Below the pieces are notes generated by a model that was not told the origin of the DNA, did not search any database, and was given only the letters and a program-made list of their open reading frames with translations. From positions 22,600-86,599 of IMG/VR virus record IMGVR_UViG_3300008448_011250: a DNA stretch of 64,000 bases; one strand, given 5' to 3'. The stretch is from a virus. Position 1 is the stretch's first letter. Every line of letters begins with the position of its first letter. The translations under genes were made by a program, and so were the position numbers. Shown in pieces: positions 14,983 to 34,994 of this stretch.

Positions 14983-15684
14983 ATGACAAAAGAACAAAGA
15001 AAAAATTTAGAATTAGTTAAATCTGGTTTTGCTAACGGTATTTCAACGCAACTAGCAACTAAACAAGCAATGTTCGGCCCAGATGCTGAATTAACTCAAG
15101 AAGAAAAACAAGCAATTATTGATGATGCTGCATTTTATTATGGAGAATTTCTTCGTGCATTAGGTGTAGCTTGGGAACAAGATCCTAATTCAGACAATAC
15201 TCCACGCAGAGTTGCAAAGGCATACGTAAATGATTTATGGAAAGGTCGTTATGAGCCAATGTCTAATATTACTTCATTTCCAAGTGATGGTTATGATGGT
15301 ATTGTGTTTGAAGGCGGTATTCCATTAACATCAATGTGTAGTCATCACCACCAGACAATTGAAGGATTAGTTCATATTGCATATATTCCGGCAGAGAATG
15401 GTAATGTAGTAGGTTTAAGTAAATTGAATAGAGTTGTAGAACACTTTGGTAGAAGAGGTGCAATTCAAGAACAATTGACAGTAGCAATTCAACACGCAGT
15501 TGACGAACTAATTACTGACAATAAAGGAGTAGCAGTTATGATTGAAGCAACTCATAATTGTGTATCATGTAGAGGTGTTAAGCATCGTGGTGCTTCAATG
15601 AAGACAGCAAAATTATCTGGAGCATTCTTGGAAGATGGCAATGCGAGATCAGAATTTTATCAATTCGTAAAAGGTTATAATTAA
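14983..15684 (+). CDS. folE: GTP cyclohydrolase I
   Basis: TPRRVAK, SMCSHH, GLSKLNRVV, IQEQLT, HNCVSCRGV. Confidence 0.95.
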   Translation: MTKEQRKNLELVKSGFANGISTQLATKQAMFGPDAELTQEEKQAIIDDAAFYYGEFLRALGVAWEQDPNSDNTPRRVAKAYVNDLWKGRYEPMSNITSFPSDGYDGIVFEGGIPLTSMCSHHHQTIEGLVHIAYIPAENGNVVGLSKLNRVVEHFGRRGAIQEQLTVAIQHAVDELITDNKGVAVMIEATHNCVSCRGVKHRGASMKTAKLSGAFLEDGNARSEFYQFVKGYN

Positions 15685-16286
15685 TGGCTGATTGGGACGC
15701 ATTGAATGCAGAATTAGATACTGCATTAGATTCAATGACTCATGAAGATTGGTTACAATGGAAAAATATGTCTATTATAGATTGGGAATTACACCAAAAA
15801 CTTATGCAAAAGAAAAGTAAAATGAAAAAGTTTAAGTCAACAAAATTATTTGATGGTTATTCTGCTTGTTTTAGACAATGGCGAGCAGAAGATACGCATT
15901 GCAAATTCTTACATGGGTATGCAGTATCATTTCGAGTATGGTTCGAAGGTGATTTAGATCATCGCAATTGGGTATTTGATTTCGGAGGAATGAAACGTGC
16001 AAAAACGCAAATTGCAGGTATGTCTCCGAAAGATTACTTTGCGTGGCTATTAGATCACACTACGATTGTATCTGTCGATGATCCATACTTAAAGACATTC
16101 GAACAAATGCATGAAGATGGTATTATCCAATTGCGAATATTAGCAAACGTTGGTTGCGAAAAGTTTGCAGAACATTTATACAATGTAATCAATATATTCT
16201 TATTACAAGAAACCGAAGGTAGAGTTAAGGCAACAAAAGTAGAAGTATATGAACACGAAAGAAATTCGGCAAGTTATGGAGAATAA
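15684..16286 (+). CDS. queD: 6-carboxy-5,6,7,8-tetrahydropterin synthase
   Basis: HCKFLHGY, WVFDFGG, LDHT, GCEKFAE, YEHERNSA. Either a 46-aa N-terminal extension or an alternative start at 15822. Confidence 0.85.
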   Translation: MADWDALNAELDTALDSMTHEDWLQWKNMSIIDWELHQKLMQKKSKMKKFKSTKLFDGYSACFRQWRAEDTHCKFLHGYAVSFRVWFEGDLDHRNWVFDFGGMKRAKTQIAGMSPKDYFAWLLDHTTIVSVDDPYLKTFEQMHEDGIIQLRILANVGCEKFAEHLYNVINIFLLQETEGRVKATKVEVYEHERNSASYGE

Positions 16287-16400: not shown

Positions 16401-16781
16401 ATGAAAAATAATGAAGAGATATATGTATCACTTTATGAGTATTTAGGTAAAGGTTCTGGTGGTACTAATATTGGTCGAGAAGTAACGGCAGAAGCTGTTA
16501 AACAAGGCGTTGATATCAAATGGAGAACTCTACCTAAAGAAGCACAACGTCCGGAATATACTCAAGTACAAATATATCCAATATCATTTTTGGATTCATA
16601 TTTTGCTAATGATCCGACTGTAGGTAATGTTGAAATAGATCGAACTCCATTAGTACGTCGTTCCGAATTGCTTAAATTGCAGCAACGACTACAAGAACTT
16701 GAGGCTAAATTTGACGCCGTAATTAAAAAATTAGATGTACCAACAACCAAATTAGAAGATGACTATGACCTCCCATTCTAA
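16401..16781 (+). CDS. Hypothetical protein with coiled coil and SSB-like DDYDLPF tail
   Basis: 126 aa; C-terminal heptads LLKLQQRLQELEAKF; ends EDDYDLPF. Confidence 0.55.
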   Translation: MKNNEEIYVSLYEYLGKGSGGTNIGREVTAEAVKQGVDIKWRTLPKEAQRPEYTQVQIYPISFLDSYFANDPTVGNVEIDRTPLVRRSELLKLQQRLQELEAKFDAVIKKLDVPTTKLEDDYDLPF

Positions 16782-17547
16782 AAGAATTACAGATTACAAC
16801 AAAACATTGCCCATAGTAGAATTGTATAGATGTGTACAATCAGAAGGCTCTCGCTTTGGCAGACCTACTATTGCAGTTAGAACTACGGGTTGCACTCATC
16901 GATGCTATTTTGGCGAAGGTGGTTGGTGCGATTCTTGGTATACTAGTATTCACCCGGAGAAAGGCACATTTACTTTCAATGACATCATAAAGATATATGA
17001 CGAAAATCCGCATATCAAAGAAATGATGTTAACTGGAGGTTCTCCAACAATGCATCCAGCATTGGTAAATGAATTGACACACTTTGCACATGAAAGAGAC
17101 ATTCTTATCACTATTGAAACTGAAGGCTCACATTTTATTGCTACTGATTATCCTATCGGCTTATTATCTATTAGCCCTAAGTTTAATAATAGTGTACCCG
17201 TTGTGGGCGTTGCTACGCCGCAGGGCACTATCACGGATTCAAAGATGGTATCCCAACATAACAAGTTTAGATTGAATTACACAGCAATCAATGAAATGAT
17301 ATCATATCATACAGATTATCATTATAAGCCAGTATGGGATGGTACAGAAGAAAATTTGCGAGAAATTGAAGAAGCTCGCATATTCCTAGATATTCCAAAG
17401 GAAAAAACATACATTATGCCAGCAGGAGATACCAGAGAAGAATTAATTAAAATGTATCCCGTAGTATTTGAAATGTGTGCCGAACATGGATATAACATGA
17501 CAGGTAGAGACCATATTATTGCATATGATACTAAAAGAGGCGTGTAA
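16759..17547 (+). CDS. queE: 7-carboxy-7-deazaguanine synthase (radical SAM)
   Basis: VQSEG, VRTTGCTHRC...WCDS, LTGGSP, TIETEG, SISPK; clustered with folE and queD. Confidence 0.88.
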   Translation: MTMTSHSKRITDYNKTLPIVELYRCVQSEGSRFGRPTIAVRTTGCTHRCYFGEGGWCDSWYTSIHPEKGTFTFNDIIKIYDENPHIKEMMLTGGSPTMHPALVNELTHFAHERDILITIETEGSHFIATDYPIGLLSISPKFNNSVPVVGVATPQGTITDSKMVSQHNKFRLNYTAINEMISYHTDYHYKPVWDGTEENLREIEEARIFLDIPKEKTYIMPAGDTREELIKMYPVVFEMCAEHGYNMTGRDHIIAYDTKRGV

Positions 17548-18395: not shown

Positions 18396-18625
18396 TAGAA
18401 GCATTAGGGTGGGCTAGTACCGCATTGGTATTAGTAGGTTACATTTTAAATGCACGACAATTTACACGTTATGCAATGTATGCCTGGATCATTGGCGATA
18501 TTGGTTGGATTACATATGATTTTTTCATTGATAATTTCAGCCATTTGGTATTAAGCTTAGTTATTATTATTATAAATTTATACGGAATATGGAACTTATT
18601 ATCAGCAAAAAAGAAATCCAATTAA
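18392..18625 (+). CDS. Small membrane protein (about 3 TM)
   Basis: 77 aa, hydrophobic; IINLYGIWN resembles PnuC/YgjV-like half-transporters. Confidence 0.55.
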   Translation: MIEALGWASTALVLVGYILNARQFTRYAMYAWIIGDIGWITYDFFIDNFSHLVLSLVIIIINLYGIWNLLSAKKKSN

Positions 18626-19095
18626 GAGTAAAACAATTGGCATTAGACATTGCAAATGACCATATAAATACAGGTAATGCATTGCCACCAGTAATGATTT
18701 GCATTTTGAACGGTGCGTACATGTTTTATACGGATTTGCTCCGTAATATGCCGGTAGATGTACAATCTGATTTTGTTAGAATGAAATCATATCAAGGTCA
18801 AGATAATTCCGGCGGGATTGAAATCCTTAAGGGTTTAGAAGTAGATCTTAAAGGTCGCAATGTTTATATTGTAGATGATATTTGTGATACGGGTACAACT
18901 ATATTAGAAGCATTGTTTATGGTTAATAGTCACTTGCCCGCTCAAGTTAAAGTTGTTACATTAACAAGAAGAGGTGGCGGTGTTGATTTAACAAATTTTT
19001 GTGGTTTTGTTTTAGGCGATGAATGGATTGCTGGCTATGGGCTTGACAACAACGGGGTAGGAAGAAATTTAGAGGATTTATACAAGGTTAATTAA
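18589..19095 (+). CDS. hpt: Hypoxanthine-guanine phosphoribosyltransferase-like
   Basis: ICILNGA, KSY, IVDDICDTGTT PRPP motif, AGYGLD. Confidence 0.88.
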   Translation: MELIISKKEIQLRVKQLALDIANDHINTGNALPPVMICILNGAYMFYTDLLRNMPVDVQSDFVRMKSYQGQDNSGGIEILKGLEVDLKGRNVYIVDDICDTGTTILEALFMVNSHLPAQVKVVTLTRRGGGVDLTNFCGFVLGDEWIAGYGLDNNGVGRNLEDLYKVN

Positions 19096-21611
19096 TGTTT
19101 CAAGGAATAGGTTACGACAAAAAAAATAACATCATGCACGTATGGGATGATGAATTAGGACACCAAAAGTTTTCTTTTCAACCATATGCATATTTGCCAG
19201 ATGATAATGGTGCACACGTTTCATTAGATGGAACGCGACTATCACAAGTCCCAGGCAATCACAAAGACAATAGAACTGCATATGAATCAGATCTAAACGA
19301 AGAAATGCGCACATTGATTGATTTATATTATGAATCAGATGAGCCGTCCAAAGGACATAGAGATTTCTTTTTTGATATTGAGTCAGAACGTGATGAAAAT
19401 GGTTATTCAACACCGCAAGATGCACGTTTGCGAATTACATCCATTGCATATTATGATAAAGCAGCAAATGACCGCAAAGTATTGGTATTAGATGAAGAAC
19501 ATCGAGTTACAACAAAAGGTTTTAAAGAAGCTGAATATGAAGTAGAGATATTTCGCACAGAAGCGGATATGTTGACTAGATTCATAAATATTTTTGCTGC
19601 AGCTAAACCTACCGTAATTACAGGTTGGAACATTGACAATTATGACGTTCCATATCTTGTTAATCGTATTAAAAAAGTATTAGGTGCACAAGCAGTTAAA
19701 AAGCTTTCTCCTGCAGGTATTGTAGATTGGAATAAGAATCGAGAAAGATACAAAATCTTTGGAGTATCTAGTTTAGATTACCTGACACTATATAAAAAGT
19801 TTACGTATACAGAATTACCAAATTATCGATTAGACACTGTAGCAAAAACAGAATTAGGTAAGGGTAAAGTTGAATATGAAGGAGACTTGAATCAATTGTT
19901 TGCAACTGATATTCGCAAATTTGTTGAATATAACATGGTTGACGTTAATTTGGTTTATGAGTTAGATGAAAAGACACAGTTATTGAATCTTGCTCGAACC
20001 ATATGTCATAAAGGCCATGTTCCATATGAAGATGTATATTATGCATCTAAATACCTGGATGGTGCTGCAATAGTTGATTTGAAACGCAATGGATTAGTTG
20101 CACCTAACAAACAATTCCGATTTGTTGAAGAAGAAACGGAAGCTGATGCATTAGCAGGAGCATATGTAAAAGATCCGATACCCGGCTTATACAAATGGAT
20201 ATATGACTTAGATTTAACGTCATTATATCCTAGCATCATCATGAGTTTAAATATTTCTCCAGAAACTAAAGTAGGAGTAATACAAAATTGGAATGAAGAA
20301 TGTTTATTGAAACCAGAAGCACAACAAGTCACATTTACCAATGGCACGTATGCTCAAAATGTTAAAACATGGCTACAAGACAATGCATATACCGTTGCAA
20401 GTAATGGTGCCGTTTATAGAACAGATATCCGGGGATTCTTACCAACGATTCTAGAAAAATGGTTTGATGAACGTGTTGAATATAAAGACAAACGCGATGA
20501 ATATGCAGTCGGAACGGAAGAATATAAGTTTTATGATGCATTGCAGTTAACACAAAAAGTATTGCTCAATTCATTTTATGGAGTATTAGGACTTAAGACA
20601 TTTCGATTCCACGATTTAGATAATGCAGGTGCTATCACAGCAACAGGTCAAAGTGTAATTAAGTTTTCCGCAAAAGTTATTAATAATCACTATGCAAAAG
20701 AAGTAGGACAAGACCATTTCATTAATGCAACCAATGGCAAAGCAGAATTTGCATTCTATACGGATACAGATTCAACCTTTGTTAGTTCATTGCCTTTAAT
20801 TGCAAAACGATTTCCTGGATTTGATGAAACAGATGAAAAGTTTATGATTGAACAAACCAATGCAATTGCATCAGAAGTTCAACGTCTTGTAAATCAAATG
20901 TATGACCGATATTCGGAAGTATTTCACAATACCAAAACGCATCGATTCCAAATTAAACAAGAATATGTTGCAAAATCAGGTTTATGGATTGCTAAGAAGC
21001 GATATGCACAATGGGTTATATTCAAAGAGGGTAAACCTACGGATAAATTAGATATCAAAGGATTAGATGTTGTTAGATCTAGTTTCCCGGAAGATTTCAA
21101 AAAGATAATGAAAGAAACACTTTGGAATATTCTTAAGGAAAAGAATAAAACAGAAACAACCGATATGATTCACACGTTTAAATCTGGATTAAAGAATTCG
21201 CCAGTACTTAATGTGATGAAGAATTCCGGGGTAAAGGAAATATCAAAATATACCAAGAAAAGAAAACCATTTACAGGATATTTACTCGGAACACCAGCAC
21301 ACGTTAAGTCAGCAATTAATTTCAATGATTTGTTAACGTCTAATGACATTCGAGACATTGAACCTATAACAGATGGCGAAAAGGTTAAATGGGCATACTT
21401 ATCAGATAATCCTTTTGGTTTTGACACAATGGCACTTCGAGGTTACCAAGATCCAAAAGTTATCGTGGACTTTGTAGAGCAATACATAGATCGCAATAAA
21501 ATCTTTGAAAAGGAATTGAAAAATAAACTGGATGATTTCTATGCAGCAATGAATTGGGGTGCATTCCCGGAAAATAATTCAGTTGCCAAGTTCTTTTCAT
21601 TTGGAAAATAA
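19095..21611 (+). CDS. Family B DNA polymerase
   Basis: Exo FDIE, GWNIDNYD, YNMVD; Pol DLTSLYPS, KVLLNSFYG, YTDTDS, KKRY. Confidence 0.96.
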   Translation: MFQGIGYDKKNNIMHVWDDELGHQKFSFQPYAYLPDDNGAHVSLDGTRLSQVPGNHKDNRTAYESDLNEEMRTLIDLYYESDEPSKGHRDFFFDIESERDENGYSTPQDARLRITSIAYYDKAANDRKVLVLDEEHRVTTKGFKEAEYEVEIFRTEADMLTRFINIFAAAKPTVITGWNIDNYDVPYLVNRIKKVLGAQAVKKLSPAGIVDWNKNRERYKIFGVSSLDYLTLYKKFTYTELPNYRLDTVAKTELGKGKVEYEGDLNQLFATDIRKFVEYNMVDVNLVYELDEKTQLLNLARTICHKGHVPYEDVYYASKYLDGAAIVDLKRNGLVAPNKQFRFVEEETEADALAGAYVKDPIPGLYKWIYDLDLTSLYPSIIMSLNISPETKVGVIQNWNEECLLKPEAQQVTFTNGTYAQNVKTWLQDNAYTVASNGAVYRTDIRGFLPTILEKWFDERVEYKDKRDEYAVGTEEYKFYDALQLTQKVLLNSFYGVLGLKTFRFHDLDNAGAITATGQSVIKFSAKVINNHYAKEVGQDHFINATNGKAEFAFYTDTDSTFVSSLPLIAKRFPGFDETDEKFMIEQTNAIASEVQRLVNQMYDRYSEVFHNTKTHRFQIKQEYVAKSGLWIAKKRYAQWVIFKEGKPTDKLDIKGLDVVRSSFPEDFKKIMKETLWNILKEKNKTETTDMIHTFKSGLKNSPVLNVMKNSGVKEISKYTKKRKPFTGYLLGTPAHVKSAINFNDLLTSNDIRDIEPITDGEKVKWAYLSDNPFGFDTMALRGYQDPKVIVDFVEQYIDRNKIFEKELKNKLDDFYAAMNWGAFPENNSVAKFFSFGK

Positions 21612-21634: not shown

Positions 21635-22087
21635 ATGATTGGTTATAAAAGTATATGGTATGGTAAAGAAGTTGAAGGACGCTTTACGGATATCGAAACA
21701 TGTTTCATTGCAGACTTTACGCCATTAGTTTATGGTACGCAACGAATGAAACCTATGCCGCACATTTATATTTGTTCTCCGGCTACTGAACAATTGGTTA
21801 ATGACAGCAAAAGCAAAGATTTCAATTGGCAGAATGTTTTTAACATGATATCAGACACGCAATTTGTTTCAATTGAAGCAACACCTGGTATGTTAGAACA
21901 TATTCCTCCGATGATTAGAATTCGAGCGCATATCTTATTAATGTTAGATTGCAAAGATGCTGGATTGTTAAAGCAAACGGATAGTATCAAAGTAGTTTAT
22001 GGAGATTATAAATTGTATTGCACAACCGTTCATAATATGCAATCAGTAAACCCAGATGATTATAAATTCGACCGCCATGAAGTATAG
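21635..22087 (+). CDS. Hypothetical protein, first gene of the modification operon
   Basis: 150 aa; WYGKEVEGRF...DDYKFD. Confidence 0.6.
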   Translation: MIGYKSIWYGKEVEGRFTDIETCFIADFTPLVYGTQRMKPMPHIYICSPATEQLVNDSKSKDFNWQNVFNMISDTQFVSIEATPGMLEHIPPMIRIRAHILLMLDCKDAGLLKQTDSIKVVYGDYKLYCTTVHNMQSVNPDDYKFDRHEV

Positions 22088-22418
22088 TGTAGTAGTAACA
22101 TTTAGCATCGAAGGATTTCATAATTGGCCTGATGCTAAAGATGTTTTTCCAGAAGTAGCATTCTTATCAGATAGACATCGTCATATGTTTGGATTTCGTT
22201 GTTATGCACACGTAACACACACTGATAGAGATGAAGAATTTATTCTAATGCAACGAAGATTGAAACAACAGTTGCGAACTAACTTCGGTGGTAACATATT
22301 AGAGTTTGGTTCAATGTCGTGTGAGATGATTGGAGAATGGATATTAGAAAACAATAAAAATCTTTACAAAGTAGAAGTTTGGGAAGATTGGGAAAATGGT
22401 GCAATCATTGAAAGATAG
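22077..22418 (+). CDS. Second QueD-like T-fold protein
   Basis: EGFHNW, HRH, EEF, SCEMI, VEVWEDWENGA: His triad and T-fold Glu motifs, but no QueD CxxLHGH. Start moved to MKYSVV. Confidence 0.6.
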   Translation: MKYSVVVTFSIEGFHNWPDAKDVFPEVAFLSDRHRHMFGFRCYAHVTHTDRDEEFILMQRRLKQQLRTNFGGNILEFGSMSCEMIGEWILENNKNLYKVEVWEDWENGAIIER

Positions 22419-22419
22419 T

Positions 22420-23454
22420 ATGAAAATATTTTTAGTAGATTTAGAATCTGTTCCAACTCGTTATACTTGTGAATGGAAATGGCACGTGCCGCAATTGCTT
22501 AGAGATAATGGCTTCGATGTAGAAGTTATCGAAGGTGACTTAGATATTCCAGAAGCAGTAACACCAGGTGCCTTTTTGAATTTCGGTGGCACTAATATGT
22601 ATAAGGCTACACAAACACATCGTTTAGCAGAATTATTTACACGAGGTGATATTAAAGCAGGAGATCATATCATATTCACTGATGCTTGGCATCCAGGTAT
22701 TATCAATGTTAAGTACATGAGTGAACTCCTAAATATTCCTGTTGTAACGCACGGACTTTGGCACGCGGGTTCATATGACCCAAATGACTTTTTAGGTCGT
22801 CTCGTTGGAGATAAACCATGGATTCGTCACGCTGAACAAGCCTTTATTGGAGCATTTGACCATAATTGGTTAGCAACTGCAGCACATTTTAATTTAATGT
22901 GTAAAACATATGACATATTTCATAATCCAACTTTTGATAGAACGGGTTGGCCTATGGAATATACAAAAACGATGATTGCTCCTAAAATGTGGGCAAAGAA
23001 AGAAAATATCATTGTATTTCCGCATCGCATTGCACCAGAAAAGCGTTTAGATTTATTTCAGCGCTTAGCAAAGCATCCGGATTTGAAACATTATCAATTT
23101 TGCGTTGCAATGGAAATGAATTTAAGCAAAACAGAATATCATGAATTGCTTCAACGTGCAAGATTTGCAGTGTCGTTTGCAGATCAAGAAACTTTAGGCA
23201 TTTCTATGTATGAATCAGCTTGTGCTGGAGCTTGTCCTATAGTTCCAAATCGTTTATCATATACGGAAATGTATGATCCGATGTTTAAACGTGCTGATTC
23301 GGTAGCAGAGGCAGCAAAAGCAATACTAGAATATGAACAGCAAGAAATGTCCGAAGCAATTGGGCAATTAGTTGCAAAATTACATAATAACTTTTTTTCA
23401 GCAAAACAATTAATCAATTATTTAAAAGGATACGAAAAAGATGAGCGAAAATAA
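22420..23454 (+). CDS. GT-B (family 4-like) glycosyltransferase
   Basis: VFPHRIAPEKR and QETLGISMYESACAGACPIVP (ExxGxxxxE); WHAG. Confidence 0.8.
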   Translation: MKIFLVDLESVPTRYTCEWKWHVPQLLRDNGFDVEVIEGDLDIPEAVTPGAFLNFGGTNMYKATQTHRLAELFTRGDIKAGDHIIFTDAWHPGIINVKYMSELLNIPVVTHGLWHAGSYDPNDFLGRLVGDKPWIRHAEQAFIGAFDHNWLATAAHFNLMCKTYDIFHNPTFDRTGWPMEYTKTMIAPKMWAKKENIIVFPHRIAPEKRLDLFQRLAKHPDLKHYQFCVAMEMNLSKTEYHELLQRARFAVSFADQETLGISMYESACAGACPIVPNRLSYTEMYDPMFKRADSVAEAAKAILEYEQQEMSEAIGQLVAKLHNNFFSAKQLINYLKGYEKDERK

Positions 23455-24700
23455 AAGATTCATATACTTTCCATCATTGTCCGCAGGTTCCATGGTATCT
23501 GCTTTCAAAAAGGATATGAAATTTGAAGATGGTAACCCTGTCAAATTTTTTGATTCGAGATATCCGGCAGATTGGAGACATCCATATTTCCTAGTCACTG
23601 CAGGACATCATTACAAAAAAATAGACTTTAGAAAGCAAATGGGCTTAGAAGATGATGTATTAGTATTTGGAGATTCAGGAGGTTATCAGATTGCAACTGG
23701 AGCTTTGCCATATAGCAATGAATTACGTGAAAAGATATTTCATTGGTTAGAAGCAAATAGTGATGTTGCAGCAAATTTAGATATTCCACCTAAGACAAAG
23801 TATAAGAATCAATTTGCTCTATGTGCTGATATTAGTTTTGATAACTTTGCTTGGTTTGAAAAACATCAATCAGGTAAGACAAAATTCTTGAACATGTTGC
23901 AAGGATCAAATTCCGAAGAGTATACATGGTGGTATCACAAATTTAAGCATTTTGATTTCCAAGGTTGGGCAATCGGAGGTCCGCAGAAGTTAGTAGACTT
24001 TATGTTTGCGGTTTCATTGATGCTTAAGAATAGAGAGTTTGAAAATAAACGATTAGAATATGTCCATTTATTAGGTATTTCTAAAATATCAGATTTCTTC
24101 ATATTAGCAACCTTGCAAAAGTTAATGAATCAACATACAGGTAATAGAATTTATATTACAACGGATTCATCTTCTCCAGGTCAATATCCGGTATTCGGAA
24201 CATACCTGCATTCAACGAATTACAAGTCACAATCATTTTCTGAATTGTATTTTCCTAAGAATGCAGAATACCGCAGAAAGACACATATTAAACAAGGTAA
24301 GACGGGTGAAGTTCCAATTGATTTAACTCAACACGTTCCTTGTTCATTAGGTTGTCCGGCTTGTAAAGATTTTACCTATGATTTGCTAGGAGGTAAGACT
24401 CCAGAAGGATTAGATAGATATTCTCAAGAAGCTATGCCTAGAATGGTTGTTCACAATACGCATTTGTATGTACAAGCAGCAAATGAAATAAATCAATTAG
24501 TTGATAGTCACGTTGAATTGCTAGAAACGTTGATACCAAGAGACTTATATGATGTAATCCTTTCATTACACGAAATGTTTGCAGATCCAGATGGCGCACC
24601 GCAAGTATATGAAAAATACATCAAAACATATAAAAAATTCGGCGGAAGTAGTATTTCCACAACCGATGCAGAAAACTTTAATAAATTCTTTAAATTTTAA
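23441..24700 (+). CDS. dpdA: DpdA-like guanine transglycosylase (TGT fold)
   Basis: GDSGGYQ, LDIPP, LQG, AIGG, VHLLG, TDSSS, CSLGCPAC...HN zinc site; linked to folE/queD/queE. Confidence 0.8.
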   Translation: MSENKRFIYFPSLSAGSMVSAFKKDMKFEDGNPVKFFDSRYPADWRHPYFLVTAGHHYKKIDFRKQMGLEDDVLVFGDSGGYQIATGALPYSNELREKIFHWLEANSDVAANLDIPPKTKYKNQFALCADISFDNFAWFEKHQSGKTKFLNMLQGSNSEEYTWWYHKFKHFDFQGWAIGGPQKLVDFMFAVSLMLKNREFENKRLEYVHLLGISKISDFFILATLQKLMNQHTGNRIYITTDSSSPGQYPVFGTYLHSTNYKSQSFSELYFPKNAEYRRKTHIKQGKTGEVPIDLTQHVPCSLGCPACKDFTYDLLGGKTPEGLDRYSQEAMPRMVVHNTHLYVQAANEINQLVDSHVELLETLIPRDLYDVILSLHEMFADPDGAPQVYEKYIKTYKKFGGSSISTTDAENFNKFFKF

Positions 24701-24712
24701 TCAGGATAAACA

Positions 24713-25423
24713 ATGGAAAAAAGCAAGTTACAATCATTTATTAATCGTTATTATTTAGCAGGAAATTGCGAAGCGGTTAAATTGAATCAAAACGAAGAAG
24801 GTGTTGGTTGTGAATTGATCGATATGGATCAAACAATTGTAGGTAAAATACAATGGAAAACAACACCATTCATGAAAGGCGAATTAGGTATCAATCATAC
24901 CGGTGCCTTAAACAAAATGCTCGGAGCATTGGGTGAAAATATCAATATCAATGTAAAAGATGCAGCAGGTAAGAATTATGCAATGGAAATTGCTGAAGGT
25001 AGCACTAAGGCAACATTTATGTTGGCAGACACGACAGTTATTCCAGCAGTTCCTTCAATCAATGCAGAACCTGATTATGTTATTGAAATTCCTGTCAATG
25101 AAGAATTTATTAGCAAGTTCATTAAAGCCAAGAATGCATTACCTGATGCCAAAAACTTTGCAGTGCAAGTAAAAGATGGTGTTATTAAATTTATTATCAA
25201 TTACACAACAGTTAATGCAGATAACATTACATTCGAGGTAGGAAATACAACTGCTGCCGATATGGATCCGGTTTGTTTCTCTGCGGATAAATTGAAAGAA
25301 GTACTTGTAGCAAATCGTGGAGACTCTGGTCAATTGAAAGTATCTCCAGATGGATTATCTAGAATTAATTTTACGGGTTCTGATTTTGAATCAACTTATT
25401 GGTTAGTAATGTTACAAAACTAA
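24713..25423 (+). CDS. DNA sliding clamp (gp45/PCNA-like)
   Basis: 236 aa, two-domain alpha/beta pattern ending STYWLV; adjacent to clamp-loader genes. Confidence 0.7.
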   Translation: MEKSKLQSFINRYYLAGNCEAVKLNQNEEGVGCELIDMDQTIVGKIQWKTTPFMKGELGINHTGALNKMLGALGENININVKDAAGKNYAMEIAEGSTKATFMLADTTVIPAVPSINAEPDYVIEIPVNEEFISKFIKAKNALPDAKNFAVQVKDGVIKFIINYTTVNADNITFEVGNTTAADMDPVCFSADKLKEVLVANRGDSGQLKVSPDGLSRINFTGSDFESTYWLVMLQN

Positions 25424-25431
25424 GGAGTCGA

Positions 25432-25860
25432 ATGCAAGTAAAAATAAAACGACTACATAAAGATGCAACGATCCCGGCATATTCAAAGCCGGGAGATGCA
25501 GGAATGGATTTAACGGCAACATCTGCAAGGAAAGATGATTATGGTAATGTTGTTTATGGAACAGGCCTGGCAATTGAAATACCGGAAGGTCACGTTGGAT
25601 TGATTTTTCCTAGATCATCAAATAGCAAAACAGATCTATATCTAACAAATCATGTAGGTGTTATTGATTCTGGGTATCGAGGAGAAATTATGTTTAAGTT
25701 TCGCCCAATTGATGGATTACTTAATGCTAAAGTATATCAAATTGGTGATAGAATAGGACAATTAATGATATTACCATATCCTGCTGTTGAATTAATAGAG
25801 GCAGCAGAATTATCTTCATCAGAACGTGGAGATGGCGGATTTGGATCAACGGGTAAATAA
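25432..25860 (+). CDS. dut: Trimeric dUTPase
   Basis: AGMDL, GTG, PRSS, GVIDSGYRGE, RIGQL, RGDGGFGSTG; AAGGAG RBS. Confidence 0.95.
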   Translation: MQVKIKRLHKDATIPAYSKPGDAGMDLTATSARKDDYGNVVYGTGLAIEIPEGHVGLIFPRSSNSKTDLYLTNHVGVIDSGYRGEIMFKFRPIDGLLNAKVYQIGDRIGQLMILPYPAVELIEAAELSSSERGDGGFGSTGK

Positions 25861-25865
25861 AAAAT

Positions 25866-26792
25866 ATGTTTGGACAACAAGAAAATACACTTTGGGTTGA
25901 ATCATTTCGACCTGACACATTAGAAGGATATATAGGCAATGAGCATATTATCGAGAAAGTTAAAATTTTTATTGATAATGGCGATGTTCCGCATCTCTTA
26001 TTTTATGGATCGGCTGGAACAGGCAAAACGACGTTGGCGAAAATAATTGCCGGATCGGTAGATGCAGATTTAATGTATATTAATGCATCAGATGAAAACT
26101 CAGTAGATGCGGTTAGAGATAAGATTAAGCGTTATGCATCAACAGTAGGATTTCGCAGATGGAAAATTATCATCTTAGATGAGGCAGATTATTTAACACC
26201 TAATGCTCAAGCTGCTCTTCGTAACTTAATGGAGACATATAGCAAAACAACACGCTTTATTTTAACATGTAACTATGTTGAAAAGATTATTGATCCGATT
26301 CAATCACGTTGTCAGACATTTGCTATTACACCACCAAATAAAAAAGAAGTAGCACAACGTTTAGTTACAGTACTTGATGAAAAAGGCGTAAGCTATGACA
26401 TCAAAGATATTGCTGCAATTATCAATGCATCATATCCAGATATTCGTCGAGCAATCAATGCAGCACAAGCATCAGTAGTTAATGGCAAATTGCAATTGGA
26501 TAAAGCTTCTGCAATTCAAGCTAATTATATGACTGAAATACTTGAAATGCTCAAAAATGCAAAAGACAAAAAAGCAACATTCACAAAAATTCGTCAATGT
26601 ATTGCAGATAGCAAAGTTAGAGACTTTACTCCTTTGTATACATTTTTATATGACAATTTAGATGAATTTGCACATGGACATATTGCACCTTGCATTTTGA
26701 TTATAGCAGAATCGCAATTTAAAGATGCTAGTGTAGTAGATAAAGAAATTAACATAATGGCAATGTTTGTCAATTTATTAGGAGAAATATGA
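25866..26792 (+). CDS. Clamp loader AAA+ subunit (RFC-small/gp44-like)
   Basis: WVESFRP, GSAGTGKTT, INASD, LDEAD, QAALR, SRC. Confidence 0.93.
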   Translation: MFGQQENTLWVESFRPDTLEGYIGNEHIIEKVKIFIDNGDVPHLLFYGSAGTGKTTLAKIIAGSVDADLMYINASDENSVDAVRDKIKRYASTVGFRRWKIIILDEADYLTPNAQAALRNLMETYSKTTRFILTCNYVEKIIDPIQSRCQTFAITPPNKKEVAQRLVTVLDEKGVSYDIKDIAAIINASYPDIRRAINAAQASVVNGKLQLDKASAIQANYMTEILEMLKNAKDKKATFTKIRQCIADSKVRDFTPLYTFLYDNLDEFAHGHIAPCILIIAESQFKDASVVDKEINIMAMFVNLLGEI

Positions 26793-27231: not shown

Positions 27232-27681
27232 ATGGCAGAAGAAAAAAAGGGTGCAACAATTTTTGATTTCATTAATGGCGTAACTGACAAGAAAAAAGAA
27301 TGGTCTAAATGGTCTGAAACGGATCAAAAGAAATTTACTCCATTTATTGTTAATCGTTGGTTGTCAATGCGTATGGAATTAACAGAAATTGTTAATGAGT
27401 TTCAAACCTATACAATTGGCTTATTGCGTCCACAAGAAACGTATAGATTATACTATGAATTTCTTCCTGCAACTAAAGGATTTGCAAAATACATAAAAGG
27501 CAAATCAGAAGATAAGTATGAAAAGGATTTAGTTGCACAAATTGCCGAACATTATCAAGTATCCAAATCAGAAGCTACTGACTATATCGATTTAATGGAT
27601 AAGACTCAATGTGATAGAATTTTATCAATGTATGGTTATAGTGAAGGAGAAAAAAAGAAATTATTGAAAGGAATAAAATGA
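27232..27681 (+). CDS. Clamp loader small subunit (gp62-like)
   Basis: FDFIN, PFIVNRWLS, HYQVSKSEATDY pattern; clamp-loader context. Confidence 0.7.
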   Translation: MAEEKKGATIFDFINGVTDKKKEWSKWSETDQKKFTPFIVNRWLSMRMELTEIVNEFQTYTIGLLRPQETYRLYYEFLPATKGFAKYIKGKSEDKYEKDLVAQIAEHYQVSKSEATDYIDLMDKTQCDRILSMYGYSEGEKKKLLKGIK

Positions 27682-29429: not shown

Positions 29430-29641
29430 AGTATTTGCATGAACATGTTTATGTTTATCAATTCGATATTGAAAATCACCCAACATGGGGTGGTAAGCGT
29501 TGGACTACAATGGAATATGCTCTTTGCACTAACATTGATGATCCAAACCACAAAGAAAATAAAAAGCTATTAGAATCCATGCTCAGACTAGTATATGGAT
29601 ATTATCCAAAAGGTGTTAAATTCATAAAGGAACGAGTATGA
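29399..29641 (+). CDS. Hypothetical protein
   Basis: 80 aa, overlaps both neighbours. Confidence 0.5.
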   Translation: MSESEQNKRIKYLHEHVYVYQFDIENHPTWGGKRWTTMEYALCTNIDDPNHKENKKLLESMLRLVYGYYPKGVKFIKERV

Positions 29642-30042
29642 CCCGAGTTGCAGTAGTAGGCAATACAAATTGGCAAAATAAACGCAAAGTACAGGATACA
29701 CTTCAAATGCTTAAACGTAAGTTTGGAGAAGAGTTAACAGTAGTTGGCGCCGGGGGAACTGAAGGTGCTAATAGTATGGTTAGAAAATATACATTAGAAT
29801 TTTCAATACGTTATGAAGAATACAATCCTAGTTTTTCCGGATACAACATGTACTCCGCTATGCCAGAATCTTATTATGGAAAACCTTATCATTTTAGTCA
29901 ACTTCATCATCGCATGAAATTGATTGCTGAACGTTGCGATTACATGATGATATTAACCAATGAAATGCAACTTGATCCGGTGTTGCAAACAGCTTGGTCT
30001 AAGACAAAAAAACTTAATAAACCGGTTGTTATTTTAGGATAG
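29638..30042 (+). CDS. SLOG-family (YspA/DUF2493-like) protein
   Basis: VAVVGN...VVGAGGTEGANS...IAERCD...KPVVI. Confidence 0.6.
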   Translation: MTRVAVVGNTNWQNKRKVQDTLQMLKRKFGEELTVVGAGGTEGANSMVRKYTLEFSIRYEEYNPSFSGYNMYSAMPESYYGKPYHFSQLHHRMKLIAERCDYMMILTNEMQLDPVLQTAWSKTKKLNKPVVILG

Positions 30043-30073: not shown

Positions 30074-31561
30074 ATGGAATTACCAAAGTTACAAAAGATT
30101 GATCCTAACAAACCTAAGAAAAAGAAAATCTTATTGTTAGCAGATGATTTTCGCTTACCATCAGGTATCGGAACAATCAGTAAAGAAATTATTTTTAATA
30201 CAATTCATCACTATGATTGGGTTCAATTAGGTGCTGCACTAAATCATCCTGATGCTGGTAAAGCATATGATTTGTCCGAAGATGTTCGCAGAGAAACAGG
30301 AGTTGAAGATGCTTCAGTTAAATTAATTCCATATAATGGTTATGGTGATAGAAACATTTTGTTTGCATTGCTAAATCAAGAAAAGCCAGATGCAATCTTT
30401 CACTTTACAGATCCTAGATATTGGACATGGTTGTATGCATTAGAACATGAAATTAAAACTACATATGCAACGCCAATTATTTATTATTCAATTTGGGATG
30501 ATTTACCATATCCAATGTGGAACGCCCCTTTTTATGCAAGTTGCGATTTAATCATAGGCATTAGTAAGCAATCCGATAATATCCATAGAGAAGTGCTTAA
30601 ACAGAACGGATTTAAGGTTGTAGATTATGATGAATCTGATGAACTTTGTGCCGAAGTTAGTTCAGATGAAATCATTACAGGTTTTGTTCCTCACGGATTA
30701 AATCATAATACGTTTAAACCTTTAGACGCCAAAGATCCGGTGTTGGTTGATATGCACAAAAAAATCAAAACGGATAATGGAGTAGATTTTGTAGTATTTT
30801 GGAATAATCGAAATATTCGAAGAAAACAACCAGGAGATGTAATTTTAGCATTCAAAACATTCGTTGATGGATTGCCAGAAGCCAAACGTCAAACAGTTGC
30901 ATTATTAATGCATACTCAGATAGTAGACGATAATGGAACAGATTTACGTGCAGTATGGAAAGCAGTATGTCCTGATTATAAAGTATTATTTTCGGAGGCA
31001 AAACTAAACACGCCGGAATTGAATGCAATGTATAACGTAGCAGATGTTGTAGTTAATATTGGATCAAATGAAGGTTGGGGACTAAGTTCAACTGAGGCAA
31101 TTTTATCCGGAACGCCTATCATTAATAATGTTACTGGTGGATTACAAGATCAATGTGGCTTTGTAGACGAAAATGATGAATGGATACGTTTTAATGGTGA
31201 ATTTGCAACTAATCATGCTGGTAAGTATAAATTACATGGAGTTTGGGCTAAACCAGTATTTCCTAGTAATAGAAGCTTACAAGGATCTCCGCAAACACCT
31301 TATATCTTTGATGATCGTGTTCGATTTGAAGATGTAGCCGATGCAATTGCATATTGGTATGACACACCAGAAACCCTTCGTTCAGAAATGGGACAATCAG
31401 GAAGAGAATGGGCGTTAAAAAATGGATTAACGGCACAACAAATGGGGCAGAAAATGATTTGGATGATTGATTATTTATTTGAATCAAAACAAGTAATTAG
31501 AAAGCGATACACATTAACACCAGTTACAGAAACAAAATACGAAAAAATAGGAATAGTATGA
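30074..31561 (+). CDS. GT-B (GT4) glycosyltransferase
   Basis: SGIG, VPHG, NRNIRRKQ, NEGWGLSSTEA, GGLQDQ. Confidence 0.88.
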   Translation: MELPKLQKIDPNKPKKKKILLLADDFRLPSGIGTISKEIIFNTIHHYDWVQLGAALNHPDAGKAYDLSEDVRRETGVEDASVKLIPYNGYGDRNILFALLNQEKPDAIFHFTDPRYWTWLYALEHEIKTTYATPIIYYSIWDDLPYPMWNAPFYASCDLIIGISKQSDNIHREVLKQNGFKVVDYDESDELCAEVSSDEIITGFVPHGLNHNTFKPLDAKDPVLVDMHKKIKTDNGVDFVVFWNNRNIRRKQPGDVILAFKTFVDGLPEAKRQTVALLMHTQIVDDNGTDLRAVWKAVCPDYKVLFSEAKLNTPELNAMYNVADVVVNIGSNEGWGLSSTEAILSGTPIINNVTGGLQDQCGFVDENDEWIRFNGEFATNHAGKYKLHGVWAKPVFPSNRSLQGSPQTPYIFDDRVRFEDVADAIAYWYDTPETLRSEMGQSGREWALKNGLTAQQMGQKMIWMIDYLFESKQVIRKRYTLTPVTETKYEKIGIV

Positions 31562-32817
31562 GAACAGCGGTTATATCATCACCAGTAGCAACACAATCAG
31601 GTTACGGACACCACGCACGAGAAGTAATTAAACAATTTATAGATAAACGAGGCGAAGAGTGGGACATTAAATTACTTTCAATGCCATGGGGACATACTCC
31701 ATTTACATATCCTATTCCGTTTGATTGGCAAAGCAGATTTGTTCCGCTTCCATTAACAGCACAGCCAGACATCTGGGTTCAAATTACAGTACCAAATGAA
31801 TTTCAACCTATAGGTAAATACAATATTGGTGTAACAGCAGGAACTGAAGGAGACGTTTGTCCTGCAGAATGGATTGATAAGATCAATCAAATGCAAGTTA
31901 CTATAGTTCCTAGCGAATTTACTAAATCAGTATTCGAAACAACAGCAAAGAATGCTGGAAAGTCGATTACAACTAGTTTACAAGTAGTTCCAGAATATTT
32001 TGATGACAAAATATATGACAATAAAAATGTAACCGTTAAAGTTGCTGGATTAGATGATATTAAAGAATCTGCAGCATTTTTAAGTGTCGGACATTGGTTG
32101 CAAGGTCAATTGGGGGAAGATCGTAAAAACATCGGGGGACTAGTGCATTGTTTCTTCAATACATATAAAAACAAGAAAGATGCTCCTGCGTTGATACTAA
32201 AAACAAGCGGAGCAACATATTCGGTAACAGATCGAAAAGAAATTGAAAATAGAATCAATCAAGTTCGAGATTTATTTCCAAATGTAAAACTTCCTAGTAT
32301 ATACTTATTACATGGTGATTTAACAAATGCAGAAATGAATGCATTATACAATCACACTAAAGTAAAAGCAATGATATCATTTACTAAATCTGAAGGATTC
32401 GGACGACCATTGTTAGAATTTGCTACAACAGGTAAGCCAATCATTGCCCCACATTACTCCGGGCCTGCAGACTTCTTAAAAAAAGATTTTATGTGTGCCC
32501 TGCCAGGAGCATTAACTCCAATTCATCCATCTGCGCAAAATGAATTTTTAATTGCAGACGCAAAATGGTTTACGATAGATTATGGGTATGCTGGGAAAAT
32601 GATGCAAGAAGTATTGAAAAATTATAAAACATTTAAAGATTTAGCAACTCGTCAAAGATACTTTGTAAATACTAATTTTACAGAAACTGCAGTAGCTAAA
32701 CGTTATGATGAAGTATTGCAAATCATTGATGATGGCGTAAATAAAATTCCGAAAGCAGTTGAATTAAAATTACCGCAGTTACAAAAAGTAGAATTACCTA
32801 AGCTTCAAAAGGTTTGA
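31558..32817 (+). CDS. GT-B (GT4) glycosyltransferase
   Basis: SGYG, DRKNIG, EGFGRPLLEF, YSGPADF. Confidence 0.88.
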   Translation: MRTAVISSPVATQSGYGHHAREVIKQFIDKRGEEWDIKLLSMPWGHTPFTYPIPFDWQSRFVPLPLTAQPDIWVQITVPNEFQPIGKYNIGVTAGTEGDVCPAEWIDKINQMQVTIVPSEFTKSVFETTAKNAGKSITTSLQVVPEYFDDKIYDNKNVTVKVAGLDDIKESAAFLSVGHWLQGQLGEDRKNIGGLVHCFFNTYKNKKDAPALILKTSGATYSVTDRKEIENRINQVRDLFPNVKLPSIYLLHGDLTNAEMNALYNHTKVKAMISFTKSEGFGRPLLEFATTGKPIIAPHYSGPADFLKKDFMCALPGALTPIHPSAQNEFLIADAKWFTIDYGYAGKMMQEVLKNYKTFKDLATRQRYFVNTNFTETAVAKRYDEVLQIIDDGVNKIPKAVELKLPQLQKVELPKLQKV

Positions 32818-32841
32818 TAATAATCTAAATTTTAATATAAT
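32813..32841 (+). promoter_or_regulatory. Class I promoter (leaderless)
   Basis: TTTGAT-17 nt-TATAAT; ATG 5 nt downstream. Confidence 0.6.
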
Positions 32842-32846
32842 ATAGT

Positions 32847-33467
32847 ATGACAATAACATATGCTATTACCGTTTGTAATGAATTTATAGAAATTCAACGA
32901 TTACTTGGTTTCTTGTTAAAACATAAACGTATACAAGATAATATTGTAGTTTTATATGATGAAGCAAATGGAGATCTAGAAATTGAAAATTTTTTGCGTT
33001 CGCATTCTGTTAATGCGGAATTTGCTTGGCATAAAGCAAAGTTTCAAGGACATTTTGCAGATTGGAAAAATCATTTAACTAAATTATGTACAGGAGATTA
33101 TATTTTTCAAATTGATGCCGATGAAATGATTGATGAGTATATATGCCGTCTCTTACCACAAGTATTAGAACACAATCAAGTAGATGTAATTCGTGTACCA
33201 AGAATCAATACGGTACAAGGTATGACACAAGATCATATGCAACAATGGGGCTGGAATGTTAATGAACATGGATGGATCAATTTTCCAGATTATCAATGGC
33301 GCGTTTATCGTAACGCACCACACATTAAATGGGAAAACAAAGTTCATGAAGTGTTAACTGGATATGAAACAATATCTCATTTACCAACTGATAAAGAATG
33401 GTGTCTATTGCATCCTAAAACAATTGAACGACAAGTAAAACAGAATTCATATTATGCAAATCTATAG
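32847..33467 (+). CDS. GT-A (GT2) glycosyltransferase
   Basis: ITVCNE, GDYIFQIDADE, PDYQWR, VHE. Confidence 0.85.
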   Translation: MTITYAITVCNEFIEIQRLLGFLLKHKRIQDNIVVLYDEANGDLEIENFLRSHSVNAEFAWHKAKFQGHFADWKNHLTKLCTGDYIFQIDADEMIDEYICRLLPQVLEHNQVDVIRVPRINTVQGMTQDHMQQWGWNVNEHGWINFPDYQWRVYRNAPHIKWENKVHEVLTGYETISHLPTDKEWCLLHPKTIERQVKQNSYYANL

Positions 33468-34311
33468 TCCATTAACATTTTGTATATCTACGTTCAATAA
33501 TTTGCCATATTTGAAGATTGCTATTGATTCTGTTAGAAAAAATAGTTATTACAAATCGGCTCCATTTCTTATTCATGCAGAAAATTGTACAGATGGTACT
33601 AATGAATGGTTACAGGAAAACAAAGACACATACAATTTAACATTACTTATTGAACCTGAGAATGATGATATAAAGGGCATTGGCGGCGGAATGAATATTT
33701 GCGCCGAACATGTTGAAACTGACTATATCATGTTTCTCCATTCTGATTTTTATGTCACAAAAAATTGGGATAAAGCTTTGTTAGATATACATGAAAAATA
33801 TCCTACGGAAAAGTTATGGGTTAATTCACATCGTGTAGAGCCGAATATGTTTAATAATCCAACTAGTAGACCAGGTACAGTAATAGTTCCGCCTACAATG
33901 TTTGGTGCTTACTTTCATGATTTTAATTCTGAGTACTTTGATGCATGGGCTGAAGATTTTATTCGAATAAATAATGAAATTGAAATTCCAAAAGGAGAAG
34001 GAGTCTCTGGATTAGTTAAAAAATCAGTTTGGATCGAAGTTGGAGGCAATGATCCGAGATTTGCTCCTGCAAGTTGGGACGATATGGATTTATTCTTAAG
34101 AATGTTACAACATGGTGTAAGATTCATATTACCAGCTTCATCATTAGTATGGCATTTTGGTGCTAGAGGTAGTCATCGATTAGAAGAAAATAATGGACAA
34201 AGTTCCGAAAGGCAACGCATTGCAGAACATGAAAATGCACACAAATGGTTACAAAAATGGGGAGCGATGCCAGCGTTTGATGAGTATGGAATGATAAAAG
34301 GAATACAATGA
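33454..34311 (+). CDS. GT-A (GT2) glycosyltransferase
   Basis: ISTFN, CTDGT, FLHSD, GGND, WDDMD. Confidence 0.85.
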   Translation: MQIYSPLTFCISTFNNLPYLKIAIDSVRKNSYYKSAPFLIHAENCTDGTNEWLQENKDTYNLTLLIEPENDDIKGIGGGMNICAEHVETDYIMFLHSDFYVTKNWDKALLDIHEKYPTEKLWVNSHRVEPNMFNNPTSRPGTVIVPPTMFGAYFHDFNSEYFDAWAEDFIRINNEIEIPKGEGVSGLVKKSVWIEVGGNDPRFAPASWDDMDLFLRMLQHGVRFILPASSLVWHFGARGSHRLEENNGQSSERQRIAEHENAHKWLQKWGAMPAFDEYGMIKGIQ

Positions 34312-34994
34312 AAAATATACCTATAGTAATTTTAAACAGAGATCGTTTATATCCTTTAATTGATCAAGTTAATGTTTTAAAGAAAAAAGGATATCATAAT
34401 ATAACTATCATCGATAATCAATCAACATATCAACCTTTATTGGATTGGTATAAAGAAACCGGAATTGATGTTTTTTATAATGATGTGACTGAAAATTCGT
34501 GCCATGCTTTTAGAGATTTAGTAATGATGAATCATCCTAAATTTAAAGCTATTACATCTGATTGGTATGTATTCAATGACAGTGACATTATCCCTTTAGA
34601 TACAGTTCCAGATAATTTTATTGAAGATTTAATTGATTATGCAATTCGACACAACAAAACGAAAGTTGGAATGTCAATTAAAATTGATGACATAGATCTG
34701 TCATATCCATTGAATGCTTGGGTACATAGTTACGAATCAACTTATTGGACTAATGCAATTGTAGATGAAGATGTTGAATTATATCCACATCCAATTGATA
34801 CAACATTTGCAGTACATGCCCCGCATATCATTCCAACTTGGAGTAATGATACATTGCGAGCTGGCGAACCGTATATTGTTAAACATGCTCCATTCTATTA
34901 TGATCCAAACAATTTACCAGAAGATGAAAAGTATTATCTGATGCATATGAATAAACAAAGTAGTAATTGGTCAAGTAAAGTAGAAGTAAAATGA
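34308..34994 (+). CDS. GT-A-like glycosyltransferase
   Basis: IIDNQST, NDSD, IDTTFA, HAPFY. Confidence 0.7.
   Translation: MKNIPIVILNRDRLYPLIDQVNVLKKKGYHNITIIDNQSTYQPLLDWYKETGIDVFYNDVTENSCHAFRDLVMMNHPKFKAITSDWYVFNDSDIIPLDTVPDNFIEDLIDYAIRHNKTKVGMSIKIDDIDLSYPLNAWVHSYESTYWTNAIVDEDVELYPHPIDTTFAVHAPHIIPTWSNDTLRAGEPYIVKHAPFYYDPNNLPEDEKYYLMHMNKQSSNWSSKVEVK

Follow-up and report, generated by a model that had tools for sequence, protein, structure and literature searches.

The tail shared by DpdA and the DNA polymerase

The window considered here, 64,000 nucleotides of the IMG/VR virus record IMGVR_UViG_3300008448_011250 (positions 22,600 to 86,599), encodes a 419-aa DpdA-like protein (23441..24700, + strand) that ends in ...DAENFNKFFKF*, much as the family B DNA polymerase (PolB) of the same phage ends, and its gene directly precedes that of a gp45-like sliding clamp. 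The DpdA tail is probably a peptide that docks on this clamp and so brings in the enzyme, a putative 7-deazaguanine DNA transglycosylase. Good support for docking comes from the predicted folds, the conservation of the tail, its covariation with the polymerase tail and a model of the complex. The source contig (86.6 kb, uncultured phage) has a G+C content of approximately 34% and carries all of its large open reading frames (ORFs) on the + strand; the phage is an uncultured T4-like myovirus.

PolB (838 aa; 19095..21611, +) is a T4 gp43-like polymerase with Pfam DNA_pol_B and exonuclease domains (PHROG 262, E 4e-184), sharing 45% identity with its best cultured relative, from Microcystis phage Mel-JY01, and approximately 31-34% with cyanophage gp43. 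Its C-terminus reads ...ENNSVAKFFSFGK*, and the final VAKFFSFGK (...NSVAKFFSFGK; 21582..21608, +), the presumed clamp-binding peptide, lies where T4 gp43 has its own tail, ...SLDFLFG (PMC6212786). This ending is kept as xxKFFxF(GK) in 80 related loci; polymerases at 40-45% identity end in SKFFNFK (Mel-JY01) and QKFFSM (uncultured phage LR756508). The proposed docking motif of DpdA, AENFNKFFKF (residues 410-419; 24668..24697, +), follows a disordered linker (residues 399-409; 24635..24667, +) whose length and sequence vary in distant relatives. In the AlphaFold2 (AF2) model of DpdA the fold ends at about residue 398. Residues 403-409 stay under 50 in the predicted local distance difference test score (pLDDT), and after them comes a short helix of low confidence (410-416). 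As modelled, the end of the protein thus resembles a short linear motif joined to the fold by a flexible tether. Between the dpdA stop codon and the clamp gene lies a spacer of 12 nt, TCAGGATAAACA (24701..24712, +), with an AGGA ribosome-binding site and no terminator-like site on the + strand. The original prediction for this DNA had claimed that PolB and DpdA end alike and that the clamp gene begins 12 nt after the DpdA stop, and the coordinates bear out both statements.

Covariation of the tails within genomes

The strongest evidence is the covariation of the two tails. In the window clade PolB ends in xxKFFxF(GK) and DpdA in FNKFFKF; the corresponding pairs are KKINSLFKF and KKINNLFKF in the related locus L142, IESFFEF and IETFFDFN in L132, SLDDLFE and TLDELFE (gp123) in the cultured T4-like Acidovorax phage ACP17, and TLDDFFS and SLDSFFD in the cultured cyanophage Synechococcus phage BUCT-ZZ01. 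Over 12 lineages with DpdA identity below 70%, which are not fully independent of each other, the similarities between the two tails of one genome add up to 257; permuting the PolB tails gives 205 ± 15 (p ~0.003). Covariation of the two tails had been put forward in the original prediction as a way of checking it, and it is present. The match is not the product of recent DNA copying, since the PolB and DpdA tail codons differ synonymously and there is no relation between the DNA sequences beyond the two stops; this also rules out that the 3' ends of polB and dpdA underwent gene conversion recently.

The sliding clamp and its predicted contact with the tail

By sequence alone, neither the ORF downstream of dpdA nor the DpdA-like ORF itself yields a Pfam match, a useful PHROG or a PDB match in phmmer searches. 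The downstream ORF (236 aa; 24713..25423, +) was therefore judged by structure prediction with AF2 and Foldseek. Its monomer, modelled from an alignment of 22 diverse homologues from related loci, has a pLDDT of 94.1 and a predicted template modelling score (pTM) of 0.90, and matches PCNA, T4 gp45 (1czd, 3u61, 6drt) and RB69 gp45 (1b77) over its whole length (E ~1e-11, TM 0.7-0.78). The model consists of two similar beta-alpha-beta-beta-beta domains with an interdomain loop, in a protein that lies in the size range of approximately 230-260 aa, and the ORF is co-encoded with gp44-like and gp62-like clamp loader genes downstream and with PolB upstream. The predicted structure thus identifies the ORF as a sliding clamp of the gp45/PCNA fold, which is what the original prediction had called it.

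We modelled the clamp monomer together with DpdA residues 388-419, each with an alignment. The complex received an ipSAE of 0.66, whereas the best of three controls received 0.02; 58 of 80 solved complexes came up to this mark, as did 2 of 110 mismatched pairs. The runs share at least 78% of their contacts, and the partner pLDDT is at least 49. In the model F413, F416, F417 and F419 touch clamp residues 39-43, 112-120 (the interdomain loop), 213-215 and 230-235, which match the elements of the PCNA pocket that receives the PCNA-interacting peptide (PIP) box. AENFNKFFKF does not fit the canonical PIP consensus Q-x-x-[LIM]-x-x-[FY]-[FY], having no Gln and placing its hydrophobic residue at -3 rather than -4 from FF, so that the DpdA tail appears, on the model, to work like a PIP box while falling outside that consensus. 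Binding of the tail to the clamp, as first proposed, is accordingly upheld as a prediction, with the peptide placed in the canonical pocket of a clamp monomer.

Covariation shows a common partner of PolB and DpdA, not the identity of that partner. The shared tail might instead bind another component of the replisome (the gp32-like single-stranded DNA-binding protein (SSB), the clamp loader or the helicase) and co-recruit both enzymes outside the clamp pocket, and the SSB-like protein indeed has a tail of its own, SAFDDLFNS, which suggests several tail-mediated contacts in the replisome. We regard this as improbable: the equivalent polymerase tail binds gp45 in T4 and RB69 (PMC6212786; PDB 1b77), dpdA lies directly upstream of the clamp gene in most lineages, and the tail is modelled in the canonical pocket with a score far above the controls. 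A role of the tail within DpdA itself (dimerisation, autoinhibition, folding or stability), with a convergent likeness to PolB, is somewhat less probable still. TGT (tRNA-guanine transglycosylase) enzymes are dimers (Hutinet 2019, PMC6884629), and a monomer model leaves room for contact between tail and domain in a dimer. The tail is, however, predicted with low confidence and stands detached from the fold behind the disordered linker, and an intrinsic role leaves unexplained why the DpdA tail has become LFKF, LDELFE or LDSFFD in precisely those genomes whose PolB tail made the same change.

Fold and probable substrate of the DpdA-like enzyme

The catalytic domain of the DpdA-like protein (residues 1-398; 23441..24634, +) is predicted to be a TGT TIM-barrel. 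Its AF2 model, based on a 63-sequence alignment, has a pLDDT of 92; the top 50 Foldseek matches are all TGT enzymes (E ~1e-9), and the VIA comparison with human TGT (7nq4) gives a Z of 24.1 and a root-mean-square deviation of 4.2 Å over 317 aligned residues. The model therefore assigns the TGT fold to the 419-aa ORF. Pfam PF01702 is found on relatives approximately 73% identical to it, some of which are named queuine or archaeosine tRNA-ribosyltransferase in certain sources; in phages nt-1 and ACP17 the same Pfam profile gave no match. Three aspartates, D78 (in GDSGG), D114 and D242, are invariant in the 63 sequences, and are equated with TGT Asp102, Asp156 and Asp280 from motif and order, without residue-level superposition. 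The protein also has a zinc site, C301-x3-C305-x2-C308 with H338, in which the cysteines are kept in 41-46 of the 63 sequences and the histidine in 59.

Among cultured phages, the nearest relative of this DpdA is ACP17 dpdA (gp123), which is homologous to it by BLAST (24% identity over a 178-residue segment) and by profile (E 1e-11). The protein shares with the DpdL pathway of phiST and ACP17 the TGT-superfamily fold and the company of FolE, QueD, QueE and DpdL with no QueC seen. Unlike phiST DpdA3, it is longer and tailed, and the two have only the DpdL partner in common. We dropped the label DpdA3 for it, there being no detectable similarity to phiST CGPG_00065 (259 aa): BLASTP gave no match at E < 1, profiles not being compared. 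Of the five other DpdL-bearing cultured phages probed, four had nothing that matched the DpdA profile at E 0.01.

The enzyme probably removes guanine from DNA and puts a 7-deazaguanine base in its place, and we infer both that DNA is its substrate and which base it inserts. The closest solved structures are tRNA enzymes and the subfamily is known here from sequence and model, so the protein could also be a tRNA-modifying TGT-like enzyme or an inactive paralogue, recruited by its tail for another purpose. The failure of ACP17 dpdA and dpdL to give detectable 2'-deoxy-7-deazaguanine (dDG) in E. coli (Cui et al. 2023, PMC10516641) also speaks for such a reading. We consider this about as improbable as a role of the tail within the protein, as all examined phages with 7-deazaguanine DNA encode a TGT-like DpdA (PMC10516641), the catalytic-type aspartates are invariant, the enzyme has ties to a DNA clamp as well as to DpdL, and a clamp-docking tail is sensible only for a DNA-directed enzyme.

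Conservation and specificity of the tail

All of the 120 closest DpdA homologues and 80 IMG/VR loci carry the ending FN[KQE][FY]F, with a further final F optional. A HMMER profile search of 1.84 billion representatives retrieved 773 relatives at E values up to 0.001. Among the best 150 of these, 120 are full-length representatives (24-47% identity), and 91 of them have [FLMIYW]F within the last seven residues, 52 having FF there; the background for the [FLMIYW]F tail is 18 of 226 ORFs (76% of the family representatives against 8%). F417 is kept in 58 of 63 aligned sequences, which places it among the most conserved residues outside the active site, and position 416 is F, L, Y or I in 60 of 63. 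Absence of the tail from orthologues had been named in the original prediction as grounds for abandoning it; the tail is conserved in the orthologues and far beyond. An apparent loss in four loci (L097, L099, L102 and L128) was rejected on inspection: EFFDF or EYFDF is present internally and is followed by a Lys/Glu-rich extension of approximately 20 residues. An internal loop of T4 ligase also binds gp45 (PMC6212786).

Within genomes the tail is rare. PolB and DpdA are the only window ORFs of 50 aa or more to end in KFFxF, in keeping with what had been noticed at the outset. They are again the sole bearers among the 226 non-nested ORFs of a close relative whose genome is complete at 159.6 kb and has direct terminal repeats; one 34-codon frame of that genome ends in NFFAF, nested out of frame in a 220-aa gene. 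In ACP17, with 233 ORFs, endings of the form ...L(L)FE are limited to PolB, DpdA and one DUF2493 protein. The sharing of the tail is not due to chance. An origin by chance or composition, for which one may cite a window of approximately 34% G+C, a tail wholly of AT-rich codons and the ease with which AAA, TTT and AAT codons yield K/F/N-rich ends, is effectively refuted and most improbable in view of the 2 of 226 ORFs in the complete relative, the family and background frequencies given above, and ACP17, where GC-rich codons encode a different but matching pair of tails.

The DUF2493 protein of ACP17 is gp197 (L179 2519-2908), ending in ...ELLFE; a small window ORF (29638-30042) is possibly similar to it and is without that tail. 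The scan of the complete 159.6-kb relative described above showed no tail clients besides PolB and DpdA. A pattern scan in two complete relatives was noisy, and the candidates considered (two small ORFs ending in KLFS and DYLF, nt-1 ORF388 and ACP17 gp122) had no PHROG match. No gp33 or gp55 homologues were identified while seeking further clients. Directly upstream of BUCT-ZZ01 dpdA lies a gene for a 419-aa protein of unknown function that ends in GSLEDFFND (ON615601 68503-69762; L185 2672-3931, minus strand), a tail of the same type as those of PolB (TLDDFFS) and DpdA (SLDSFFD) in that phage; the protein is possibly a third client of the clamp encoded at this modification locus. The nt-1 protein VPFG_00169 (L160 4416-5096), encoded between a QueD-like gene and FolE, ends in NSLANFF, which resembles the gp43 tail LESFFG of that phage; it has no PHROG match.

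Limits and consequences of the proposed clamp docking

Several points weigh against docking of the tail on the clamp or narrow its reach. With its AT-rich codons the window is prone to K/F/N-rich ends, although the GC-richer ACP17 argues against this as the sole cause. The permutation signal comes mostly from a few lineages (L142, ACP17), and the lineages are not fully independent. The score of the complex may reflect the solved PCNA and gp45 complexes with peptides, and as similar ones are solved, a pass shows likeness to those rather than binding by this particular pair; the model also used our own alignments, and the partner pLDDT is only about 50-55. Binding of the PolB tail to the clamp of the window is assumed by analogy with T4 and RB69. 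Only once before has a DNA-modifying enzyme of a phage been placed on gp45, namely T4 alpha-glucosyltransferase, and that claim was not reproduced, with no co-purification in vitro or in vivo (2025 preprint 10.64898/2025.12.06.692756). Finally, phiST DpdA3 (259 aa), with reported complete replacement, is without such a tail, and nt-1 DpdA2 ends in EYPDFKS as against LESFFG in its gp43. The tail is therefore a property of the DpdA subfamily of the window and not of all DpdA proteins of T4-like phages, and the case of phiST implies that a clamp tether is not a general need for dense modification.

If the tail does dock on the clamp, DpdA would comprise a TGT-fold domain, a disordered linker of about 10 residues and the motif F-N-K-F-F-K-F, the last of which would sit in the hydrophobic pocket below the interdomain connector loop of the clamp. 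We expect the PolB tail V-A-K-F-F-S-F-G-K to enter that pocket too. With three pockets in a presumably trimeric clamp, DpdA could share a ring with PolB, or could sit on clamps left on fresh duplex, and either arrangement would concentrate base exchange on newly replicated DNA. Processive, fork-coupled action of DpdA, which the original prediction had drawn from the tail, may reasonably be inferred from this arrangement; the timing of its action, its stoichiometry with PolB on one trimer and its effect on modification density are presumed along with it. A bolder possibility, about which we are doubtful, is that docking lets this subfamily modify the whole genome, the enzyme travelling with or just behind the polymerase so that modification is co-replicative and dense, while that by a tail-less enzyme is sparse. 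If true, this would explain why ACP17 dpdA and dpdL gave no dDG in E. coli, where the phage clamp and loader, and possibly the glycosyltransferase-like partner described below, were missing.

The DpdA cassette and its insertion beside the clamp gene

DpdA is the last gene of a four-gene cassette. The first gene encodes a 150-aa protein of unknown function (21635..22087, +) with no Pfam or PHROG match. The second encodes a DpdL-like T-fold protein of 120 aa (22056..22418, +), a proposed 7-carboxy-7-deazaguanine decarboxylase, whose LSDRHRHMF fits the signature LxxxHRHxF that defines DpdL in Cui et al. 2023 (PMC10516641), and which is 39% identical to phiST CGPG_00067 and 31% identical to ACP17 gp125, both DpdL. 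The third encodes a glycosyltransferase-like protein of GT1/GT-B type (22396..23454, +), with weak matches to Pfam Glycos_transf_1 and PHROG 4356 and 40% identity to ACP17 gp124. Since gp124 is located between dpdA and dpdL of ACP17, the three genes appear to travel together; the DpdL-like and glycosyltransferase-like genes are neighbours of dpdA not only in the window but also in ACP17 and locus L128. The glycosyltransferase-like protein could be the 'other unknown enzyme' suspected by Cui et al., or a further modifier of the base.

Genes for FolE (14983-15684), QueD (15684-16286) and QueE (16759-17547), all on the + strand and matching PHROGs 2197, 2389 and 2076, respectively, lie upstream. 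No QueC is seen in the ORF list of the 86.6-kb contig, no search aimed at QueC having been made. The presence of FolE, QueD, QueE and DpdL without a visible QueC leads us to predict a QueC-independent 7-deazaguanine modification of the DNA, dDG or a derivative: the cassette together with the three upstream enzymes would make the base and put it into phage DNA in place of guanine.

In Mel-JY01 and LR756508 the clamp gene lies directly 3' of polB (L081 3435-6744 and L082 5952-8723), and Mel-JY01 also has the order polB, clamp, loader. The polB-clamp order is ancestral, and the cassette (the protein of unknown function, DpdL, the glycosyltransferase-like protein and DpdA) is inserted between the two genes. 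Because that order predates the cassette, dpdA owes its place next to the clamp gene in part to where the cassette happened to insert. The adjacency is kept, with a spacer of 10-20 nt, in nearly all relatives of the window clade; in ACP17 and BUCT-ZZ01 dpdA does not adjoin the clamp gene and the polymerase-like tail is kept regardless. The original observation that dpdA precedes the clamp gene by 12 nt therefore stands, and it is weaker as evidence than had been assumed. In LR756508, PolB seems to be divided between two ORFs with several kb between them, which an intein or mobile element may have brought about. In locus L128 (9962-13598) a 534-aa ORF separates dpdA from the clamp gene; from its N-terminus we presume that it may be a GroEL-like chaperonin.

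Comparison with known clamp clients

The T4 gp43 tail SLDFLFG and the internal loop GLDFLFD of T4 DNA ligase both bind gp45, of which gp33 is also a client (PMC6212786); PDB entry 1b77 shows RB69 gp45 with the polymerase peptide and 6drt the ligase loop. The arrangement proposed for the window resembles these cases in that a short hydrophobic or aromatic peptide on a flexible segment is common to several proteins of one phage. The two-domain clamp of approximately 230 aa and the gp44/gp62-type loader are likewise as in T4 and RB69, and the ACP17 tails SLDDLFE and TLDELFE come near the T4 motif. The window differs from the published gp45 systems in that the client is a base-exchange DNA-modification enzyme, of a type missing among the gp45 clients published so far, its motif is Phi-x-K-F-F-x-F (Phi, a hydrophobic residue) and not LDFLF, and its binding is predicted. 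A docking mechanism that is already known would thus serve a client of a new kind.

In eukaryotes, DNMT1 and UNG2 dock on PCNA through PIP boxes, and UNG2 is a glycosylase that flips and removes a base. The likeness to DpdA lies in the recruitment of an enzyme that needs every new stretch of duplex to the clamp by a short peptide. Unlike these enzymes, DpdA belongs to a phage system, installs 7-deazaguanine by base exchange and does not conform to the PIP consensus, lacking the Gln and differing in spacing. For phages, an interaction between T4 alpha-glucosyltransferase and gp45 was hypothesised from in vitro work in 2004; the idea of a DNA-modifying enzyme on the clamp during replication is the same, and the T4 case differs in having no shared tail motif.

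Insertion by DpdA has been described as post-replicative, without a recruitment mechanism (Hutinet 2019, PMC6884629; Cui 2023, PMC10516641), and neither of these papers mentions a clamp or replisome. A full-text literature search for DpdA with sliding clamp or replisome, and for 7-deazaguanine with PCNA, found no paper making the link. Published work also leaves unaccounted for how DpdA finds every target, and why modification density spans < 0.1% to 100% between subfamilies. A polymerase-like clamp-docking tail would offer a concrete recruitment mechanism, add a base-exchange enzyme to the clients of sliding clamps and provide a phage counterpart to DNMT1 and UNG2. Heterologous reconstitution of 7-deazaguanine DNA pathways may in that case need the phage clamp and loader. 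ACP17 and BUCT-ZZ01, cultured phages with matching PolB and DpdA tails, are possible test systems.

Other genes of the replication module

The clamp gene is followed by genes for a dUTPase (25399..25860, +; Pfam PF00692, E 2e-20), the gp44-like AAA+ large subunit of the clamp loader (25866..26792, +; PHROG 168, E 5e-85; Pfam AAA and DNA_pol3_delta2) and its gp62-like small subunit (27232..27681, +; Pfam Phage_clamp_A; PHROG 225). A gp32-like SSB, UvsX, a DnaB-like helicase and ribonucleotide reductase are encoded upstream in the module. A scan for promoters and terminators gave no signal exceeding the shuffled expectation. The C-terminus of the SSB (8397-9176) has a Phi-x-x-Phi-F pattern and resembles the clamp tails. 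A 126-aa ORF without annotation between QueD and QueE (16401-16781) ends in EDDYDLPF, like the tip of E. coli SSB. On the 3' side of the replication module, positions 30074-42592 are occupied by a long series of overlapping ORFs. The gene for a purine phosphoribosyltransferase (18589-19095; Pfam Pribosyltran) abuts polB so closely that its last base is the first base of the polB ATG, and the enzyme could salvage the guanine set free by base exchange.

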